This document shows, piece after piece, positions 1,451 to 40,367 of a stretch of DNA of 43,799 nt. The stretch comes from a virus. Its lineage: Duplodnaviria; Caudoviricetes. Position 1 is the first letter of the stretch, and every line of letters begins with the position of its first letter. The stretch lies in IMG/VR virus record IMGVR_UViG_3300016476_000200, positions 1 to 43,799 of that record. The stretch is one strand, 5' to 3'. A program made the translations under genes and the position numbers. The notes under the pieces were generated by a model. It saw nothing but the letters and a program-made list of their open reading frames with translations. It was not told the origin of the DNA and did no database searches.

Positions 1451-1485
1451 AAAAAAGCCCCGCCAAGCATGAGCCTGACGGGGCT
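1451..1485 (-). terminator. Rho-independent terminator of the 275-aa/micropeptide operon
   Basis: Minus strand AGCCCCGTCAGGC-TCAT-GCTTGGCGGGGC followed by TTTTTT. Confidence 0.85.
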
Positions 1486-1489
1486 GTGG

Positions 1490-1528
1490 TTAGAACGGGA
1501 ATTCCAACTGTTCGGGATCAGCGCGCAT
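1490..1528 (-). CDS. 12-aa micropeptide MRADPEQLEFPF with a beta-clamp-binding-like motif
   Basis: Strong SD GGAGGT (1538-1533), ATG at 1528, TAA at 1492-1490, immediately followed by the terminator. Below the ORF-track cutoff. Confidence 0.65.
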   Translation of the reverse strand: MRADPEQLEFPF

Positions 1529-1555
1529 AGCGACCTCCGTTGATGTTATAGATGA

Positions 1556-1575
1556 GGGGCGGCTCGCGCCGCCCC
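1556..1575 (-). other. GC-rich GNRA-tetraloop hairpin between the 275-aa gene and the micropeptide
   Basis: GGGGCGGC-GCGA-GCCGCCCC on the minus strand with no U-tract; possible stabilising or processing stem. Confidence 0.6.
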
Positions 1576-1580
1576 CGTAG

Positions 1581-1597
1581 TCCTGACAATGTCAGGA
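1581..1597. repeat. Palindrome box 6, TCCTGAC-AAT-GTCAGGA
   Basis: Perfect arms; contains the TGA stop of the 275-aa gene. Confidence 0.95.
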
Positions 1598-2419
1598 ACC
1601 CGCCCGATCAGCCGCCGCGATGATCTCGTCAGCCAGAGCAGGATCGAACGCCGCTTCCAACATGATGGAGCAGAGCGCCGACCATTGATCCTCGGACACG
1701 ACTGAATCAGCGCCGTTTTCCTTGGCGTACCGCGCTCGCTTCTTGGTTCCCGCCTTGTGCAGACCGTTCAGCAGATCGGCGAAATCCTGTTTCGCACCAC
1801 CCGCGCGACCCGTCGCGTCAGTCTTCCAACCACGCGAGAGCGCCTGATCGACGTCATTCTTGATCCAATCGCGCATGCCCTGACCTTTGCCATCCGGACG
1901 GCAACCAGCCATAGTGCCGCGCATCCAAGCCTTGACACCGTTCGGCTTTTCAGCGACCGACGCAAGAGCCTTGAGATCGACGCCGAGCGCGAAGGCCGCC
2001 GTGAAAATGTGGTTCGCAGCCGGAGCATCCTTGATCGGAACCCACTTCCGCTGCAGCGACGACCACATACGCACCGGCAGGAAATTGTCGTCATTCCCGA
2101 CTTGGTGCACCTCGACCGAATAGTGCTCGCGAGTCTTGGCCGACTCGGTAGCCTTGGCATGCAGCACCGCATGCAGAGCCTTACCAACCTCGGACTCCCG
2201 ATCGAACACCTCGACCCCGTCGCGCTTGATCACCGGCACACCCGCCGCGAGGCACAAATCAGCAAACGCCGCGCGGAATGACTCGGTATCGTTCGCCGTC
2301 GAAATCTGAACGTCGATGGCCTGAACCGCGACCGCTTGCGCCTTGGCAAGAACTTCGCCCGCGAGAGCAGGATTGACCGACTTGGAAACAGCGACAGCGA
2401 CCTTGTTTGACTTTGCCAT
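1592..2419 (-). CDS. Early hypothetical protein (275 aa)
   Basis: Long Ala-rich ORF with GGAG SD, its own promoter and a downstream terminator. No family recognised. Confidence 0.85.
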   Translation of the reverse strand: MAKSNKVAVAVSKSVNPALAGEVLAKAQAVAVQAIDVQISTANDTESFRAAFADLCLAAGVPVIKRDGVEVFDRESEVGKALHAVLHAKATESAKTREHYSVEVHQVGNDDNFLPVRMWSSLQRKWVPIKDAPAANHIFTAAFALGVDLKALASVAEKPNGVKAWMRGTMAGCRPDGKGQGMRDWIKNDVDQALSRGWKTDATGRAGGAKQDFADLLNGLHKAGTKKRARYAKENGADSVVSEDQWSALCSIMLEAAFDPALADEIIAAADRAGS

Positions 2420-2447: not shown

Positions 2448-2464
2448 TCCTGACATTGTCAGGA
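2448..2464. repeat. Palindrome box 7, TCCTGAC-ATT-GTCAGGA
   Basis: Perfect arms; between the promoter and the SD of the 275-aa gene. Confidence 0.95.
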
Positions 2465-2493: not shown

Positions 2494-2522
2494 ATTATAC
2501 CACTTCTCTGGTACAATGTCCA
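2494..2522 (-). promoter_or_regulatory. Sigma70-type early promoter with extended -10
   Basis: Minus strand: TGGACA (2522-2517), 17 bp, TATAAT (2499-2494) preceded by TGG. Confidence 0.8.
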
Positions 2523-13911: not shown

Positions 13912-14637
13912 ATGGCCTACAAGACTACAGCAACGACGGACTTTAACCTTGATCTCAATACGATCATCGAAGAAGCTTTTGAGCGTTGTGGTGCTGAGTT
14001 GCGGACGGGTTACGACTTCCGTACCGCCAAGCGCAGTCTTGGTCTATTGCTCATGGACTGGGCAAACCGTGGTATTAACCTCTGGACGTTGGAGACCGGT
14101 ACCCAAACTCTGACGTATAACGTCGGTACGTACGACTTGCCGGTAGACACGGTTGACCTGCTTGACCATGTAATCCGTACCGGATCTGGGACGAACCAGC
14201 AGGACATCAATATCTCGCGTATTTCATCCAGTACCTACGTGTCGATTCCTAACAAGAATGCGACAGGTCGCCCCATTCAGATCTGGATTAATCGGCGTAC
14301 GGGCGCAACGGATGCAGCGGGGGCTATAGTCTATCCCCAGTTCACGGTATGGCCGAAGCCCGATAACAGCACGACTTGGACGTTGTTTTACACGCGCCTC
14401 GTTCGTATGACTGATCCCGGCACAGGCGTAAACGGTCAGGACATTCCGTTCCGCTTCCTGCCCTGTATGGTGGCAGGACTGTCTTACATGCTGTCGATGA
14501 AGATCCCCGGTGCGGAAGCCCGCACGCAGATACTGAAAGCTCAATACGACGAGGCTTGGGATCTGGCGGCTGGTGAAGACCGCGAAAAGGCGGCGGTGCG
14601 GTTTGTGCCACGTGAGAGTTTCTTGGGTGGTTACTAA
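13912..14637 (+). CDS. Head-tail adaptor / connector protein
   Basis: N-terminal helical segment (IIEEAFERCG ... WANRGINLW), GRP..W and VWPKPD motifs typical of podovirus adaptors. Confidence 0.65.
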   Translation: MAYKTTATTDFNLDLNTIIEEAFERCGAELRTGYDFRTAKRSLGLLLMDWANRGINLWTLETGTQTLTYNVGTYDLPVDTVDLLDHVIRTGSGTNQQDINISRISSSTYVSIPNKNATGRPIQIWINRRTGATDAAGAIVYPQFTVWPKPDNSTTWTLFYTRLVRMTDPGTGVNGQDIPFRFLPCMVAGLSYMLSMKIPGAEARTQILKAQYDEAWDLAAGEDREKAAVRFVPRESFLGGY

Positions 14638-15014
14638 TGCCAAACAGGTTTGCAAGTGGCAAACACGCTATCGCGATGTGCGACCGGTGTGGGTTTCAGT
14701 ACAAACTCCGCCAGTTGAAGTCGATAGTGATCAAGACCAAGAACGTGAATATCTTGGTCTGTCCGGAGTGCTGGGAGCCAGATCAGCCGCAGTTGTCGCT
14801 TGGTCTATACCCCGTGGACGACCCGCAGGCGTTGCGGAATCCAAGGCCGGATACGAGCTACTTTGCGGTGGGCAATGACGGTGCAAACGGTAGCCGTCAG
14901 ATACAATGGGGCTGGGCACCGGTAGGCGGGGCCAGAGCAGATGATGCAGGATTGACTCCAAACGACCTAGCGCCGCTTGGAGAAGTTGGGACGGTTACGG
15001 TCGTTACGACCTAG
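14637..15014 (+). CDS. Zn-ribbon-containing protein (125 aa)
   Basis: CDRC ... CPEC; TAATG overlap with the upstream gene. Confidence 0.75.
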   Translation: MPNRFASGKHAIAMCDRCGFQYKLRQLKSIVIKTKNVNILVCPECWEPDQPQLSLGLYPVDDPQALRNPRPDTSYFAVGNDGANGSRQIQWGWAPVGGARADDAGLTPNDLAPLGEVGTVTVVTT

Positions 15015-33665: not shown

Positions 33666-36600
33666 GTGGCTACACTTAATGATATTGCTTCCGCTTTGCG
33701 TAAGGCTGATGCAGCGGGAGACACTGAAGCCGCTAGACGTTTAGCCAGAGCATACCGGGACCAAAAGTCACAACTGCTCAGTATGTTTGAACCCCCCAAG
33801 GAACAGGCGGGGTTCCTTGGTTCTTTTAGAGAAGCCGTTACTACACTTGGTTTGACAGACGAAGCGGCAGAATATGCTGCTAATCCAACGGCAGAAAACC
33901 GCGAAGCGTTTCTTAAAAAGGCTGAGTCCAAGTACAAATCTGTAGGTGGATTTGGCAAGGGCGAGAATTGGGAAGCCTTCAAAGAACTGCTTGGCGGTTC
34001 GTTAGGTGCGCTTGTAGCTCCGATTGGCGCTGCCGTTGTTGGCGGTGGTTTGCCCGGTTTTGCTGCGGCTAGTGCCGGTCAGTACGGTATCCAGAACCTA
34101 CGCCGTCAGGCTGAAGAACAGCAGGCTGCTGCCGAAGCAGGCGAGGTTGTACCAGAACTATCTTTAGGTAAGGCCGCTGCCGCTGCGGGCGCTTCCACTG
34201 CACTTGACGTTGTTCCCGGTGCGTTGATTCTTAAGGGACTTAGTAAGTTCCCCATCGCTAGAGGCTTGTTGTCTGAAGACGCTACGTCTAGCAAAGCCGC
34301 ACAAGTTTTAATTGATGCATTCAAAAACGAGAATCTGTCCCTTAAAGGCAACATAGTTAAGGGCGTCGGTCTTGGCGTTGCATTTGAAGTTCCACAAGAA
34401 ATTGCTCAGCAAGCCTTGGAACGATGGCAGGCAGGTCTGCCGTTAGACGATGCAGAAGCAAAGGAAGAATTTAAACAGGCCGCAATCGGCGCTGCCGTAC
34501 TTGGCGGTGGATTTGGTGCGATTGGTGGGGCGGGTACGTATCGTGGCGTGCAGGCAGAAAAAGCCAAAGCAGCCGCTGAGCAAGAGCGCGAACGTACAGA
34601 AATTGAGCAGAGTATTTTTGGTGCGCCACTACCTTCTGATGTTGGTGTACCCGCTGACTTCTATGCAGCCGATGAAGAACGTCGTGGGCGTGAGTTAGAA
34701 GAAAGCATCTTTGGGGCTATTCCAACTGATACCGGCATTCCTGCTGATATGTTGGAGACTGAGGCTCAACGAGAAGCCCGTCTTGAGCGCGAAGCAATTC
34801 AGGCTTATGAACGTGAGCAACTAGAAAAAGCCGAGCCGGAAGAATTACTGCGTGGTCAATACAGTGCTCGTACGTTGCGTGAAGCAGCGGAGGCAGAAGC
34901 ACTTGCACCTCGTGAAGAAGACGAGGGGGCTCCATACATACCACCTGCACAAGTTACGGATGAGGGAGAAGTTGAAGCTGTAGCTCCGCCCGCTCCGTTT
35001 ACTGAAGGAGTCATGGAAGGTCTGGGTGCACCTACAGAAGGTGGTATCCCTGCGGAAATGCTCGCGCCTACTCCTCGTGAAATTGCGCTTGAAGTTATTA
35101 AAACGACTCCTACTATTAAGGCAGTTGCAGACGCCACGGGATTGAATCAACCTCAAGCCGCTGGATTGATGCGGCAATTTGTTGACGAGGGTCTGCTTGA
35201 GCGAAAAGGCAGTAAATTTAAAACCGTTACTCCCGCACCTGCCGTTGAGCCGGAGGCTACCGATGTACCAAGCGCAACAGTTGCTACTACAGAGACTGAC
35301 GGTGGAGCAGGTCGAGGAGGCGCTGATCTGTTTACATTGGGACCGCCAGCCGGAGAACTTGGTGCTCCGCCAACTGGAGGCGCAGGACTGGCTGCTACTG
35401 GCGACGTTACTGAACGGGTTGATGACCGAGAAAGAGATGTATCCCCTACACTAGAGGCTGATCTTGAAAGCCTTGGTCTTGAAAGTGCACCGACCGAAAC
35501 CGGTCTACCACCTCGTAAACTTGAAGCCTACCTTGCTGAAAGGCAGAAAGTCCGTGATCTAAAAGATCGTGCCGTTGCCTTCATCCGTGAGACTGGTAAG
35601 GGTTCAGCCACAGAACTTCAGGCGGCGCTTGGTATCCCACTTACCCAAGCCAAGGCACTGCGTAGTGCGTTACTTGGTAGCGGTCAGGTAGTACAGAAGA
35701 CCAACGTCAAAGCTGCAAAAACTGCTGGTCGCAGTTATTTCGTCGTTGAAGGGGATTACACACCATCTGGTAAGTTTGCTCCCCGCGAGGCTGCTGCAAC
35801 TGAAGCACGCCAAGAACCTGTTGCAGAGACAGGTCTTGAAGACCTTGGTCTTGAAGGCGCACCCGCCGAGACTGGTCTGCCCCCCGAGATGCTCGACAGA
35901 TACTTTGCTGAGCAACGTCTTGAAGAGGCGCGGCAGCGTGCCACAGGTAAATTGCGTGGCGAAGGTGTTGAGTCCGAGGCTGAACGTATTCAGCGTGAGG
36001 CTGATAAGGCTGCTGAAATAACGGACGCCATTCCTCGTGAACTGCCTCCCACCTTGAAGCCTGAGATTGGTAAAGGGGAGTATGGTCTACGCTACAAGGA
36101 CGCGCAGGGCAACACTGTTTACCGTGCGTATGAGTCAACGGGGCAGCGTAGCGAGGCGCGTGCCAATTTAGCCAAGGAAGGCAATAAAGACTTTGGCACG
36201 TTCTCTCGTATGGCAGAAATTGCCAAGTTTGAACTTGATTACATAAAGCGTCAGGCGATGCCCGCCATGACCAAACCGCAAGTTCAACGTGCTGTCCAGA
36301 ACATTAAAGCCGGCATGTCTAAGCTTAAAACACAGCTTGGATTGTTTACGGAAGAAGAAGCCCCAACACCTAAAAAAGCGGTGCCTAAACGCGTTTCAAG
36401 AAAAGAAGTAGTTGATTACGCCAAGAATGTCATAACGCTTGCCCGCGACTCAGGAAAGCTCAAGAAATACGCCAAGCGTATTCAGGGGGTGCTTGATTCT
36501 GTTCAGCGCGGTGACACTGACCTACGCACAGACTACAAAACGCTTCAACGTATTGAAGATAGTATTACTAAGGCTGAAGCACAGTTGGGCGAAGCCACTC

Positions 36601-39600
36601 AAGCAAGGCTTGAAGAAGATATTGATACGGACGTTAGAGATACCGTAGACGATGAAGTAAGCGTTAAAGAAAGAGATGACTCTTACGAACCTCTTGACTT
36701 TCGTAAAACAAAGTACACACGATTTAAAAAGATCAAAAGCCTTACGAAAGGCTTGAAGGCTGACACTGTCAGGTCGTTGATTGGCAAAATCACGGCTGGC
36801 TGGAAGAACCCGCCTAATTTTATTGTTGTACAGTCGTATCTTGATCTACCGCAAGAACTTGATCCCGAGGCTGCCGCAGACAGCATGGGCTTTGCCTCTG
36901 GTAACGATGTGTACATTATTGCAGACAACATTCGTCTGCCGTCTGATCTAAAAGCCACGGTATTCCACGAATCACTTGGTCACTACGGTCTTGAGCAGTT
37001 GTTTGGGGAGAGGCTTCTCCAGACGATGCTGGACATTTACAACACGAACAATCGTGTTCGCGCCGATGCCGATGCGTGGCTTGAAGAAAACCCGGACGTG
37101 TATCCGGAGAGCGAGTTCACGCAGGATGAACGCAGGGCGCTGGCAGCGGAAGAAGTCTTTGCCGAGATGTCAGAAGGTGGCCCGATTGCCAACTCGCAGT
37201 ATCGCGCTGCGTTCAACCGTGTTGCTGCCTTAATCCGTAAGTTTGCCCGTGCCTTGAGTCGACTGGTTGGCCGGGACGTTTCTTACAGCAACCGCGAAAT
37301 CCAAGACATCATCGCGCAGGCTCACAACAAGGTCATTACTGGTAAGACCCGCCTCATACCGCGTTACAACAATATCCGGTACATGAAGAAGTGGTACGAC
37401 CGCACGTTGACCAATGCAATGGACTACGCGCAAAAAGCGCCGGAAGCCTCGCGAGAACTTCTGACCGGTAACGTCGACGCGCTTAGTAACATTCCTAACT
37501 CACTGCGTAACGCAAAGCTGGCTACGTTCTCAATGCATCACATTATGCAGTTATTTGAGAAGTATGCCCCTGCGTTCCGTGCCCTGAACAATTTGATTGA
37601 AAGAAAAGCCTACGACTCCACAAAGGAGATGGTGGAGTTCACCAAGCAGGCAAGTAAGTATCGACAAGTCCTGCGTAACAACAGTCAGTACGTAGACGAG
37701 TTCAACAAGGTCGCGCACCTGATTAACCTCTCTCAGGCCCCAGTGCTTGCGGAACAGGTAAATGCAAATGGTGACTTTGAGCGTTATGTACCAAACGTAG
37801 CAGCGCAACGGATGCGTAATATCCCTGCGAATAGCGCGGCGTACAACGCGCTTACGCCTGATGACAAGGTACTACACGAAGCGGTTAATAGGTTTTATGC
37901 ACTGCCGACTGATGTTCAGCAGGTGATTGCTGACGTATACACTGATTACAGGAATTACAGTGACAATGCGTTCAAAATTAAACTGACGCAGTTAATGAAC
38001 AGATTGCCTGCCAATATTGTTGCAGGCATCAAAGCAAACTTCCAAAACAACCGATTGAAGTTCTATCTGCCCCTGCCACGCGAGGGTATGTACAAACTTG
38101 TCTATTTGGATAACAACGGCATACGAGTTAGCCAGTTGTTTGATAGCTTGGCTGGGCGAGATAGCGCAGAACGACAGGTGCGTAGTCAGGGCATGACTGT
38201 CCTTGATGAACCCAAGGTGCTACGCCAGAGAAACTACAGCGATTCAAATCTGCCGCCGGGATTGCTCAAGGAACTTCTTGAAAATGTGCAGGACTCCTTG
38301 ACCAGATCAGGTGTAGCCCCTGCCGATATTGATAAGGCAAAAGAAACGGTCTTTGATACGTTTGTTGAGTTCATGCCCGGTGCTTACGGTAACGATCTGC
38401 GTCAAGAGATTAGTTCACGTAAGACTTTCATGCTCAACGGCGTGATGTATTACGGGCGGCTTGGTTACGATGAGGATGTGATTGGTGCGTACGAAAAACG
38501 CATCCCCGGCATCATTTATCAAATCAACAATCTCAAGTACACGATGCCCTTTGAGAAGGTCAGGAAACTGATCAAGGAGCAGTTGACCACATATCGTGAT
38601 AACAAGGGTGCACCTGCCTATGCAGGATTGCCGGATCTAGATGATCCGTACCTTGAGTCACTGCGTGAGGACTTGGATTCTCGAATCTCGTTTGCCAAGA
38701 CGTTGCAGCAATACTCGCCGTATGTGTACACAATTGGTAAAGCCAATTACATCTACAGTATTGCGCTAAACATATCTTCAGCCATGATCAATACGACCAT
38801 CATTCCTATGATGGCTTGGCCTGCGCTTGCGGCTAAATATGGCGTTGTTAATGCTACACGTGCTGTGGGGCAGGCAATGCAGATGTTCTTCAAGCACTCG
38901 TACCGTGATCCGCAGACCGGTAGGTTGAGCTTCGACTACAAGCGTTTGGCTGATATGCCCGCCTCGTTTGGTGGCGACAATATGCCTGCTGCTTACGCGC
39001 AGACGGCGCACGGTAGAGAGTTCAACCGCTTCTTCCGTACGTTGGTGGCTAGATCTGTGGTGGGAACTGCTGCTGAACAAGAACTGATTCAGGCAGAGAA
39101 CATTACTGTTCCGGGTTACGAAGGCTTGAGTGCCAAAGCAAATTTGCTGATGAGCTATGTATTCCGTAGTTCTGAGCGTATGAACCGTGAAGTCACAGCG
39201 CTCGCTGCCTACATGCTGGCTCGTAACATTGACGTAAATGGGCAGGCATTTGATGCTAACAGGCAGGGAGTAAGTGTAGGCAAGGCGTCGGAAGAAGCGA
39301 TCCGTCTTAACTACGATATCAACGGTGCTACCACGCCTGAGACGAACAGCCGTTTGTACCAGACAGACATCGGCCGTATTGCTCTTACGTTCAGAACGCA
39401 CGCTCTGAACATGATCTTGAATCTCGCCTTTACGTTTAATCAGGCGGTCGAAAAGATCAACGCGAACCAGCCGAACGTGGCTGAGCGTAAACTTTTAAAA
39501 TCAATCGCTCGTAGAAAATTGCTGTACATCTTCGGTTCGACGTACATGCTGGCGGGCATAAAGGGTTTGCCGCTTTTTGGCGCTGCCGAGGTGCTCGCGT

Positions 39601-40367
39601 CTCTGCTGATGGGCGATGATGACGAGCCGTATGATCTTGAGCAGGAAGTGTTGGATTCGGTTGGCACGTTGGGATTGAACGGTCCTGTTAACGAGTTGTT
39701 GAATATTGATATCGCTTCTAGAACTGGTTTCTATGGCCTTCTGTGGCGCGATGACCCGAAGCGTTTGGCGGAGGTGGGCGTGCCTGTGTATGTTCTGGAG
39801 CGTTTGGCGGGACCGACTTACGGACTGGTTGAAGCAGCGCGTCGTGGATTCAATGACTTTGCGGAAGGGGATTTGCAACGCGGGTTTGAGGCCATACTGC
39901 CTGCTCCGTTACGTAACGGATTGAAGGGTATGCGGTATGGTATAGAAGGTGCTTTGACGAGGGACGGGCTTCCCATCGTTGACGATGTCAATGCGTATAA
40001 CTCAATGATGCAGGTGTTGGGTTTTGCCCCGGCAGATTTGGCGGTGGCACAGGCGCAGAGAGGTGCGACCTATCAGGTTAGCGAGAAGTTAAAGAACCGA
40101 CGTACTTCTCTTTTGACGAATCTTTATGCTGCACGAAAGGCGGACAATCCAGAGGCAATGGAGAAGGCTCTGGAGGATATTCGTTCATTCAACGGTTCTA
40201 ATCCCTCCTACGCAATTACATCCGACTCCATTACCAAGTCGTTTAACGAACGCGAACGTAGGGCCAGAGAAGCAATCATGGGTATTTACCAACCCAGAAA
40301 CTTGCGTTACGCCACGTCTGAGTACGTAGCGGATCTGGATGCAGAGGATGAGGATGCCTTCTTCTAG
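33666..40367 (+). CDS. Large polyvalent ejection protein (2233 aa) with wHTH, zincin-like HExxGH and PLxRFG-like motifs
   Basis: N-terminal Gly/Ala membrane-type segments; HESLGHYGL at 36966; YLPLPREG near 38070; two wHTH-like segments; QLGLF at 36333. Confidence 0.8.
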   Translation: MATLNDIASALRKADAAGDTEAARRLARAYRDQKSQLLSMFEPPKEQAGFLGSFREAVTTLGLTDEAAEYAANPTAENREAFLKKAESKYKSVGGFGKGENWEAFKELLGGSLGALVAPIGAAVVGGGLPGFAAASAGQYGIQNLRRQAEEQQAAAEAGEVVPELSLGKAAAAAGASTALDVVPGALILKGLSKFPIARGLLSEDATSSKAAQVLIDAFKNENLSLKGNIVKGVGLGVAFEVPQEIAQQALERWQAGLPLDDAEAKEEFKQAAIGAAVLGGGFGAIGGAGTYRGVQAEKAKAAAEQERERTEIEQSIFGAPLPSDVGVPADFYAADEERRGRELEESIFGAIPTDTGIPADMLETEAQREARLEREAIQAYEREQLEKAEPEELLRGQYSARTLREAAEAEALAPREEDEGAPYIPPAQVTDEGEVEAVAPPAPFTEGVMEGLGAPTEGGIPAEMLAPTPREIALEVIKTTPTIKAVADATGLNQPQAAGLMRQFVDEGLLERKGSKFKTVTPAPAVEPEATDVPSATVATTETDGGAGRGGADLFTLGPPAGELGAPPTGGAGLAATGDVTERVDDRERDVSPTLEADLESLGLESAPTETGLPPRKLEAYLAERQKVRDLKDRAVAFIRETGKGSATELQAALGIPLTQAKALRSALLGSGQVVQKTNVKAAKTAGRSYFVVEGDYTPSGKFAPREAAATEARQEPVAETGLEDLGLEGAPAETGLPPEMLDRYFAEQRLEEARQRATGKLRGEGVESEAERIQREADKAAEITDAIPRELPPTLKPEIGKGEYGLRYKDAQGNTVYRAYESTGQRSEARANLAKEGNKDFGTFSRMAEIAKFELDYIKRQAMPAMTKPQVQRAVQNIKAGMSKLKTQLGLFTEEEAPTPKKAVPKRVSRKEVVDYAKNVITLARDSGKLKKYAKRIQGVLDSVQRGDTDLRTDYKTLQRIEDSITKAEAQLGEATQARLEEDIDTDVRDTVDDEVSVKERDDSYEPLDFRKTKYTRFKKIKSLTKGLKADTVRSLIGKITAGWKNPPNFIVVQSYLDLPQELDPEAAADSMGFASGNDVYIIADNIRLPSDLKATVFHESLGHYGLEQLFGERLLQTMLDIYNTNNRVRADADAWLEENPDVYPESEFTQDERRALAAEEVFAEMSEGGPIANSQYRAAFNRVAALIRKFARALSRLVGRDVSYSNREIQDIIAQAHNKVITGKTRLIPRYNNIRYMKKWYDRTLTNAMDYAQKAPEASRELLTGNVDALSNIPNSLRNAKLATFSMHHIMQLFEKYAPAFRALNNLIERKAYDSTKEMVEFTKQASKYRQVLRNNSQYVDEFNKVAHLINLSQAPVLAEQVNANGDFERYVPNVAAQRMRNIPANSAAYNALTPDDKVLHEAVNRFYALPTDVQQVIADVYTDYRNYSDNAFKIKLTQLMNRLPANIVAGIKANFQNNRLKFYLPLPREGMYKLVYLDNNGIRVSQLFDSLAGRDSAERQVRSQGMTVLDEPKVLRQRNYSDSNLPPGLLKELLENVQDSLTRSGVAPADIDKAKETVFDTFVEFMPGAYGNDLRQEISSRKTFMLNGVMYYGRLGYDEDVIGAYEKRIPGIIYQINNLKYTMPFEKVRKLIKEQLTTYRDNKGAPAYAGLPDLDDPYLESLREDLDSRISFAKTLQQYSPYVYTIGKANYIYSIALNISSAMINTTIIPMMAWPALAAKYGVVNATRAVGQAMQMFFKHSYRDPQTGRLSFDYKRLADMPASFGGDNMPAAYAQTAHGREFNRFFRTLVARSVVGTAAEQELIQAENITVPGYEGLSAKANLLMSYVFRSSERMNREVTALAAYMLARNIDVNGQAFDANRQGVSVGKASEEAIRLNYDINGATTPETNSRLYQTDIGRIALTFRTHALNMILNLAFTFNQAVEKINANQPNVAERKLLKSIARRKLLYIFGSTYMLAGIKGLPLFGAAEVLASLLMGDDDEPYDLEQEVLDSVGTLGLNGPVNELLNIDIASRTGFYGLLWRDDPKRLAEVGVPVYVLERLAGPTYGLVEAARRGFNDFAEGDLQRGFEAILPAPLRNGLKGMRYGIEGALTRDGLPIVDDVNAYNSMMQVLGFAPADLAVAQAQRGATYQVSEKLKNRRTSLLTNLYAARKADNPEAMEKALEDIRSFNGSNPSYAITSDSITKSFNERERRAREAIMGIYQPRNLRYATSEYVADLDAEDEDAFF
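35263..35454 (+). CDS. Putative overprinted gene (63 aa, +1 frame) inside the 2233-aa gene
   Basis: GGAGG SD at 35252-35256, 6 nt before the ATG; Leu-rich helical product ending in LH; the host frame here is a low-complexity linker. Confidence 0.6.
   Translation: MYQAQQLLLQRLTVEQVEEALICLHWDRQPENLVLRQLEAQDWLLLATLLNGLMTEKEMYPLH

Follow-up and report, generated by a model that had tools for sequence, protein, structure and literature searches.

The question raised by this locus is whether twelve codons, placed between a Shine-Dalgarno site and a terminator in a phage record, constitute a gene, and if so what a product of that size could do in the host. The window, by which we mean the whole 43,799-nt stretch analysed (IMG/VR record IMGVR_UViG_3300016476_000200, positions 1 to 43,799), had been described in an earlier note as having a GGAGGT Shine-Dalgarno, an ATG, twelve codons, a TAA and then an intrinsic terminator. 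All of these elements were borne out, and they lie on the minus strand, which that note had left unstated (Table 1). Our reading of the locus as a whole, to which we give a probability of roughly 60%, is that it holds an accessory gene whose product would be a free clamp-binding motif and a decoy for the host beta-clamp.

Table 1. Position, strand and properties of the features of the transcription unit in the window.
Feature	Position	Strand	Remark
Sigma70-like promoter, TGGACA-17-TATAAT with TG (extended -10)	2494..2522	minus	11/12 consensus
Palindrome copy	2448..2464		between promoter and first cistron
275-aa gene	1592..2419	minus	first cistron
17-bp palindrome TCCTGACnnnGTCAGGA	1581..1597		overlaps stop of the 275-aa gene
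9-bp GC hairpin	1555..1576	minus	between the 275-aa gene and the slot
Shine-Dalgarno GGAGGT	1533..1538	minus	4-nt spacer to ATG at 1528
12-codon ORF MRADPEQLEFPF + TAA	1490..1528	minus	11 distinct 12-codon alleles
Motif QLEFPF, hexameric clamp-binding type	1493..1510	minus	free C-terminus
Intrinsic-terminator-like hairpin, 13 pairs + U-run	1456..1485	minus	starts 5 nt past TAA

The promoter and the 275-aa ORF behind it indicate a two-cistron unit, which would be transcribed by the host RNA polymerase and translated early in infection. The peptide had been called the last cistron of a strong early operon; it is the second of two cistrons, and the words "early" and "strong" derive only from the promoter consensus. 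The GC hairpin between the two cistrons, absent from the earlier note, may be a leaky terminator or a transcript stabiliser and could attenuate read-through to the peptide. Homologs of the 275-aa protein in carriers of the 12-mer are 26-83% identical to that of the window (9 compared). The 275-aa gene had no PHROG match, no Pfam match above the cut-off was obtained among the 9 proteins checked, and none of the protein's Atlas neighbours is named; across the clade the gene belongs to a fast-evolving family beside terS, and its products often carry a basic tail at the C-terminus. In the five sequencing runs the matched share of the words was only 0.05-0.14, and the four examined consisted of contigs of relatives, none of them shown to be RNA of this phage.

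The palindrome TCCTGACnnnGTCAGGA occurs seven times, at 125, 250, 571, 720, 1290, 1581 and 2448, all in the end region 125-2464. The copy between the promoter and the first cistron appears operator-like, and in relatives the copies often lie shortly 3' of sigma70-like promoters; this placement suggests that the palindromes are operators of some regulator. On the minus strand about 500 nt (112-633) separate another promoter (661-633) from the next gene start; this stretch has palindrome copies and no clear gene, and is possibly a structured leader. The AT-rich non-coding region at 760-1220, which contains TTGTACGC repeats as well as long inverted ones, may be a genome end, a packaging site or an origin.

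To estimate how often such an arrangement arises by chance, 300 windows were simulated with a first-order Markov model of the window. A Shine-Dalgarno followed by an ATG ORF of 6-26 codons that ends in a loose hexameric clamp motif was found in 3 of them; the observed count of 2 in this test is one single ORF with two overlapping Shine-Dalgarno words.

Related loci were sampled by the terminator alone, blind to the peptide, which gave 23 loci in viral contigs and 58 in metagenome contigs. The clade palindrome or hairpin was present in 45 of the 81. An ORF ending in the motif, defined here as Q-[LYHF]-x-[LFM]-x-[FL]-stop, stood just before the terminator in 37 of these 45 marked loci and, after duplicates were removed, in 28 of 34. 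Of the six exceptions, three had an empty slot; the ORF lacked the motif in two and ended in EIVLVFV in one. Among the 36 loci without a marker the motif was found in 2, and the remaining 34 look unrelated. The slot sampled in this way lies between the inner hairpin and the terminator, 3' of a gene of ~230-290 aa, in a subclade of what appear to be HTVC023P-like podophages; comparison of relatives of the 275-aa gene had already shown this space to vary.

The slot is occupied by alleles of two lengths. The short alleles have 12-13 residues (MRADPEQLEFPF, MCAEPEQLEFPF, MRDDPQQLEFPF, MRCDPEQLEFPF, MRDEPEQLEFPF, MDDIPEQLEFPF, MNDEPEQLELPF and MNTSEPEQLEFPF). The long alleles have 50-77 residues and several dissimilar bodies, with the tails QLEFPF, QLELPF, QLDLPF, QLDLPL, QLRLNF, QLSFVF, QLSFAF, QYEFxF and QHEFxF. 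The ribosome-binding region and the tail are common to short and long alleles, and the pattern looks as if a body had been deleted or swapped. What the earlier note had not seen is the modularity of the slot: the window peptide is its shortest allele, and at other loci the place is taken by 50-77-aa proteins with this tail or left empty. A 13-aa allele (L126:62-103), the ATG of which overlaps the stop of a 68-aa ORF, suggests translational coupling or a split long allele. Of the 579 viral loci that bear terS, the best 80 were considered; 40 of these extended for at least 1500 nt upstream, and 4 of the 40 had a slot ORF. The slot gene is accessory and dispensable.

The terminator hairpin is kept regardless of the content of the slot, and this bears on the idea that the ORF is a leader peptide controlling termination at the hairpin. 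The short distance from the stop codon to the terminator (5 nt) would suit such a leader, but the same terminator stands behind 12-aa, 50-77-aa and empty alleles, no gene follows on that strand for ~800 nt past the terminator, and selection acts on the identity of the residues, all of which leaves a leader barely credible.

Selection was examined in the 11 distinct 12-codon alleles, the window's included. The ATG, the length and the stop are intact in all 11, and each allele has a purine-rich site 5' of its ATG in otherwise divergent sequence, so that the Shine-Dalgarno region of the relatives is still purine-rich while differing from GGAGGT. Synonymous codons are used freely at some positions (all four at Pro5, both at Gln7, three at Leu8). 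The uncorrected pairwise pN/pS was 0.054 for codons 7-12, 0.105 for codons 5-6 and 0.51 for codons 2-4, values that are descriptive because the 11 alleles are related to each other. By hand count, at least 9 of the 11 minimal changes in codons 5-12 were synonymous (binomial 9e-5 to 1.3e-3). The peptide is very likely under selection, and the ORF, to judge from this variation, is a real micro-gene that would be translated as an accessory gene. Conservation in relatives was one of the tests that the earlier note had set for its proposal, and both these 11 alleles and the slots counted above keep the ORF and the motif.

Such conservation could have another source if the 12-mer were what is left, without function, of a longer protein tethered to the clamp, with its 3' end kept through linkage to the terminator or through an RNA hairpin. 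The ribosome-binding region and tail shared by short and long alleles are what an internal deletion would leave; empty alleles occur, the last codons of all 11 alleles fall within a weak hairpin, and codons 11-12 are identical in DNA in all of them, with no synonymous change. A remnant is nonetheless quite unlikely. None of the 11 short alleles has a frameshift, a premature stop or a lost start, synonymous change is saturating at Pro5, which lies outside the hairpin, the Shine-Dalgarno is kept in divergent sequence, and the upstream protein falls to 26% identity. Moreover, 1.4-30% of synonymous shuffles fold as well as the hairpin, and only 1 of the 11 alleles falls below the 5% level, that is, folds better than 95% of its shuffles. 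RNA structure may add constraint, but it leaves codons 5-7, the start and the frame unexplained.

What the selected residues might bind was approached by comparison with the clamp-binding consensus, published as the hexamer Q-phi-x-[L/M]-x-[F/L] (PMC11139829; bioRxiv 2025.08.20.671105), which Hda realises as PAQLSLPLYL; acidic flanks and a free C-terminus favour clamp binding (PMC11139829). The likeness to a clamp motif proposed in the earlier note stands as to the hexameric type and its conservation, and the alleles with Leu at position 4 fit exactly: QLELPF, QLDLPF, QLDLPL and QLRLNF all match the hexamer consensus, and the P-x-Q-L-x-L-P of alleles mirrors the PAQLSLPLYL of Hda. It does not stand for the window's own Phe4, which departs from the consensus, a point missed in the earlier note; because of it, the window peptide is a variant and not a strict member of the motif. 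Among the known E. coli ligands described in PMC11139829, position 4 is only Leu or Met, and Phe there weakened inhibition. The pentamer QLSFF of B. subtilis MutS showed 1.5-3-fold weaker binding than QLSLF (bioRxiv 2026.05.27.728225).

A profile of 16 aligned long alleles, tail included, retrieved 50 proteins homologous to the 56-61-aa allele, some of them identical to those of the slot loci. The motif is terminal in 46 of the 50 and lies 1-6 residues from the end in the other 4. Position 1 is Gln in 11/11 short alleles, all of which are also present in the motif-blind slot listing, in 16/16 aligned long alleles and in 46/46 homologs, the last set having been filtered on it. Leu occupies position 2 in 11/11 short alleles, while the 46 long homologs have mostly Tyr (25) or Leu (19); position 3 is Glu or Asp in all 46. 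At position 4 Phe is found in the window and in 8/11 short alleles, with Leu in 3/11, and the long homologs divide similarly (Phe 29/46, Leu 17/46). Position 5 is free among the long homologs. Position 6 is Phe in 11/11 short alleles, and Phe (34) or Leu (12) in the long homologs, of which 44/46 have a Pro two residues before the Gln. The motif is free in the 12-mer, and in the 56-aa allele residues 46-56 are predicted to be without secondary structure (last-block pLDDT 57).

The same alignment bears on mimicry of the SSB tail, which the earlier note had offered as a second target and which would block SSB-binding pockets. The SSB tail, DDDIPF, has Ile-Pro-Phe at its C-terminus, after a run of acidic residues. 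The window peptide is indeed acidic and has a Pro-Phe end, as do 11/11 short alleles, and one allele begins MDDIP. Yet the window peptide ends in EFPF, its last three residues not being preceded by an acidic triplet, and the penultimate Pro is found in only 18/46 long homologs versus Gln at -6 in 46/46 (filtered). Since a Pro-Phe end occurs in only 6/46 long homologs while the Gln at -6 is constant, SSB mimicry is disfavoured and must be considered highly improbable.

To determine whether the tail could be accommodated by a clamp, allele L177 (56 aa, ending EQLEFPF like the window peptide) was modelled with E. coli DnaN as a stand-in clamp. The allele is predicted to fold into a small domain of beta-beta-alpha-beta type, its tail remaining unstructured; a fold search with it gave a best Z of 5.3 and no match at 8, and a likeness to T7 Gp2 (Z 4.9) was set aside as not meaningful. 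The model with DnaN scored 0.84, compared with 0.02 for the best of three controls; among solved pairs 116 of 157 reach a score of this level, and among mismatched pairs 2 of 215. Agreement between runs extended to at least 97% of contacts, and the partner pLDDT was 89. In the model the Gln of the tail contacts DnaN residues 175, 320, 362 and 364 and Phe4 contacts 172, 174, 175, 177 and 362, residues that are listed as belonging to the subsite II and subsite I pockets (PMC11139829); the body helix adds contacts at 150-152. Modelling with DnaN had been proposed in the earlier note, and it placed the same tail of this longer allele in the canonical pocket. Because many clamp-peptide complexes have been solved, the result may be a memory of the motif. 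The model shows likeness and a predicted accommodation of Phe4 in the pocket, and it concerns the 56-aa allele, not the free 12-mer on the host clamp.

Taken with this model, the alignment makes the beta-clamp the probable target of the peptide. Among the points against the clamp are that Phe4 and Tyr2 (25/46) are common and that the slot is dispensable. The partner could instead be a different protein of the host that recognises Q-phi-[DE]-phi-x-phi at a C-terminus, for instance a protease or adaptor for which the peptide would be a decoy. Hydrophobic C-termini are recognised by several proteases, and aromatic residues are more prominent in the family consensus, Q-[Y/L]-[E/D]-[F/L]-x-[F/L], than in that of the clamp. 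We regard a partner of this kind as unlikely: the invariant Gln, the acidic position 3 and the alleles that fit the clamp consensus exactly interchange in one aligned set of columns, the Phe4 tail was modelled in the DnaN pocket, and small ORFs of related phages carry QRELF, QKPLF, QLELDF or an N-terminal QLDLF.

Those small ORFs were encountered in the same region of distant relatives, with terminal QRELF, QKPLF, QRELDL or QLELDF or an N-terminal QLDLF. They include a family of 80-82-aa ORFs upstream of terS (L248:-, L266:-, L267:-) ending in QRELDLV, QKPLF or QRELF, an ORF starting MKEQLDLF (L272) and one ending near QLELDF (L205), all possibly independent clamp-tagged early proteins. A further 63-aa ORF (L088:2636-2827) starts MTIQYQPDLF, its pentamer being the C-terminal motif of MuC. 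A loose C-terminal motif starting with Gln was found in 10 of 253 distinct small ORFs from 57 loci (4 slot alleles, 4 other clamp-like ORFs and 2 doubtful), and the same test with ten other first residues gave 0-3 each. A scan for hexamers in viral contigs returned 20 pattern matches, among which no real free-standing motif peptide from outside the clade was found: clade alleles accounted for 3, another 3 contained an in-frame stop, 13 were out of frame, and the remaining one, L009/L185, was dropped as a micro-gene since its frame is the end of a longer open one.

The 43.8-kb record encodes a terminase, portal, GroES, capsid, endolysin and primase-helicase, and its terminase shares ~50% identity with the terminases of Pelagibacter phages HTVC023P and HTVC027P. 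The core of HTVC023P-type phages comprises terminase, GroES, helicase and a family A polymerase (PMC9599517). A family A polymerase was found in 3 of 4 related records, all of them incomplete, and the window stops short of the polymerase region; no clamp domain was found in these same 4 incomplete records. Assignment of a host through terS relatives in seven binned contigs was abandoned, since the bin labels (Terrimicrobiaceae, Fluviibacter, Rhodocyclaceae, Gammaproteobacteria and unclassified) are mixed and the contigs are probably mis-binned phage; no host is called. In two of the bins, Hda-like genes encode Leu at motif position 4; they were given no weight here.

Binding to the clamp need not be hostile, and the peptide might be positive or neutral for the phage, tuning the clamp for phage replication or transcription while the host goes uninhibited. 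Phage Mu MuC uses clamp motifs for late transcription (PMC12867686), and motif-like words occur in other proteins of the window: a 125-aa ORF at 14637-15014, which has a weak zinc-finger hint, has QLSLGL in its interior, which matches the hexameric clamp motif strictly, and a 2233-aa protein at 33666-40367, with a DarB-like C-terminal match, contains an internal QLGLF. Against this, the 12-mer has no second domain to tether, and the three relative polymerases, which were partly translated, share no motif match (0, 1 and 2 matches, none common to all). A non-inhibitory role is very unlikely.

In the decoy reading that we prefer, Gln7 of the 12-mer would enter subsite II of the host beta-clamp, and Phe10 and Phe12 with the free carboxylate would enter subsite I, as modelled with the longer allele. 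Because the 12-mer lacks any other domain and has nothing to tether, it could only occupy the pocket, and so compete there with Hda, translesion polymerases, mismatch repair, Pol I and Pol III. Host replication and repair would be slowed or deregulated as a result, and the longer alleles would display the same tail on small carrier folds. Given the likeness to the Hda motif and the precedent of MuC, a loss of initiation control or of access for repair is as plausible an outcome as fork stalling. Competition at the clamp would presumably benefit the phage, which could afford a blockade, since for replication its relatives have a family A polymerase of their own. A free 12-mer may, however, be short-lived in the cytoplasm. 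The odds are about even that the gene is a bare short linear motif, a 12-residue ribosomal decoy that resembles the Hda motif and represents, in minimal form, a swappable clamp-tag cassette missed by standard annotation.

The motifs of Hda (PAQLSLPL), Pol IV (QLVLGL) and the Pol III alpha C-terminus (QVELEF) have the same order of Gln-aliphatic-x-hydrophobic-x-Phe/Leu, and the peptide resembles these ligands in its acidic flanks and free C-terminus, with the Pro two before the Gln as in Hda (PMC11139829). It differs in that those motifs tether an enzyme or a regulator, whereas here the motif is nearly the whole product and position 4 in the window is Phe. Phage Twort Gp168, with the smaller Gp240, is likewise a small phage protein directed against the beta-clamp of the host (PMC8565349). 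Gp168, from Staphylococcus phages, is folded and occupies the DNA channel, away from the protein-binding pocket (PMC8565349); a channel blocker of that type was rejected for the present peptide, which has only 12 residues and whose tail was modelled in the pocket. Phage Mu MuC and Mor also have clamp motifs, and their over-expression is lethal through interference with Hda-dependent control, but they are transcription activators that use the clamp through pentameric motifs and are not motif-only peptides (PMC12867686). SocB of Caulobacter is a natural blocker of replication at the clamp's hydrophobic cleft (PMC9690074), and unlike the 12-mer it is the folded toxin of a chromosomal toxin-antitoxin pair (PMC9690074). 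Phage N4 gp8 inhibits host replication at the clamp system, its target being the clamp loader and not the clamp pocket (PMC12817073). The published phage proteins of the clamp system that we found are folded, and they bind the DNA channel or the loader or make use of the clamp. No motif-only phage clamp peptide was reported in the literature searched, which was mostly non-subscription and taken without supplements.

The closest parallel in mode of action is with the APIM peptides and griselimycin, short peptides that occupy the pocket as is proposed here. Those compounds are synthetic or non-ribosomal and are delivered externally, while the 12-mer would be a ribosomal phage product. If the decoy reading is true, the slot is an example of a class of genes that gene callers drop, and its allelic series (12-mer, carrier folds and empty slots, with position 4 as Leu or Phe) amounts to an experiment, already set up, on the tolerance of the pocket. 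The peptide itself would then be among the smallest effectors of host takeover, and a natural, genetically encoded counterpart of the pocket-binding peptide antibiotics.
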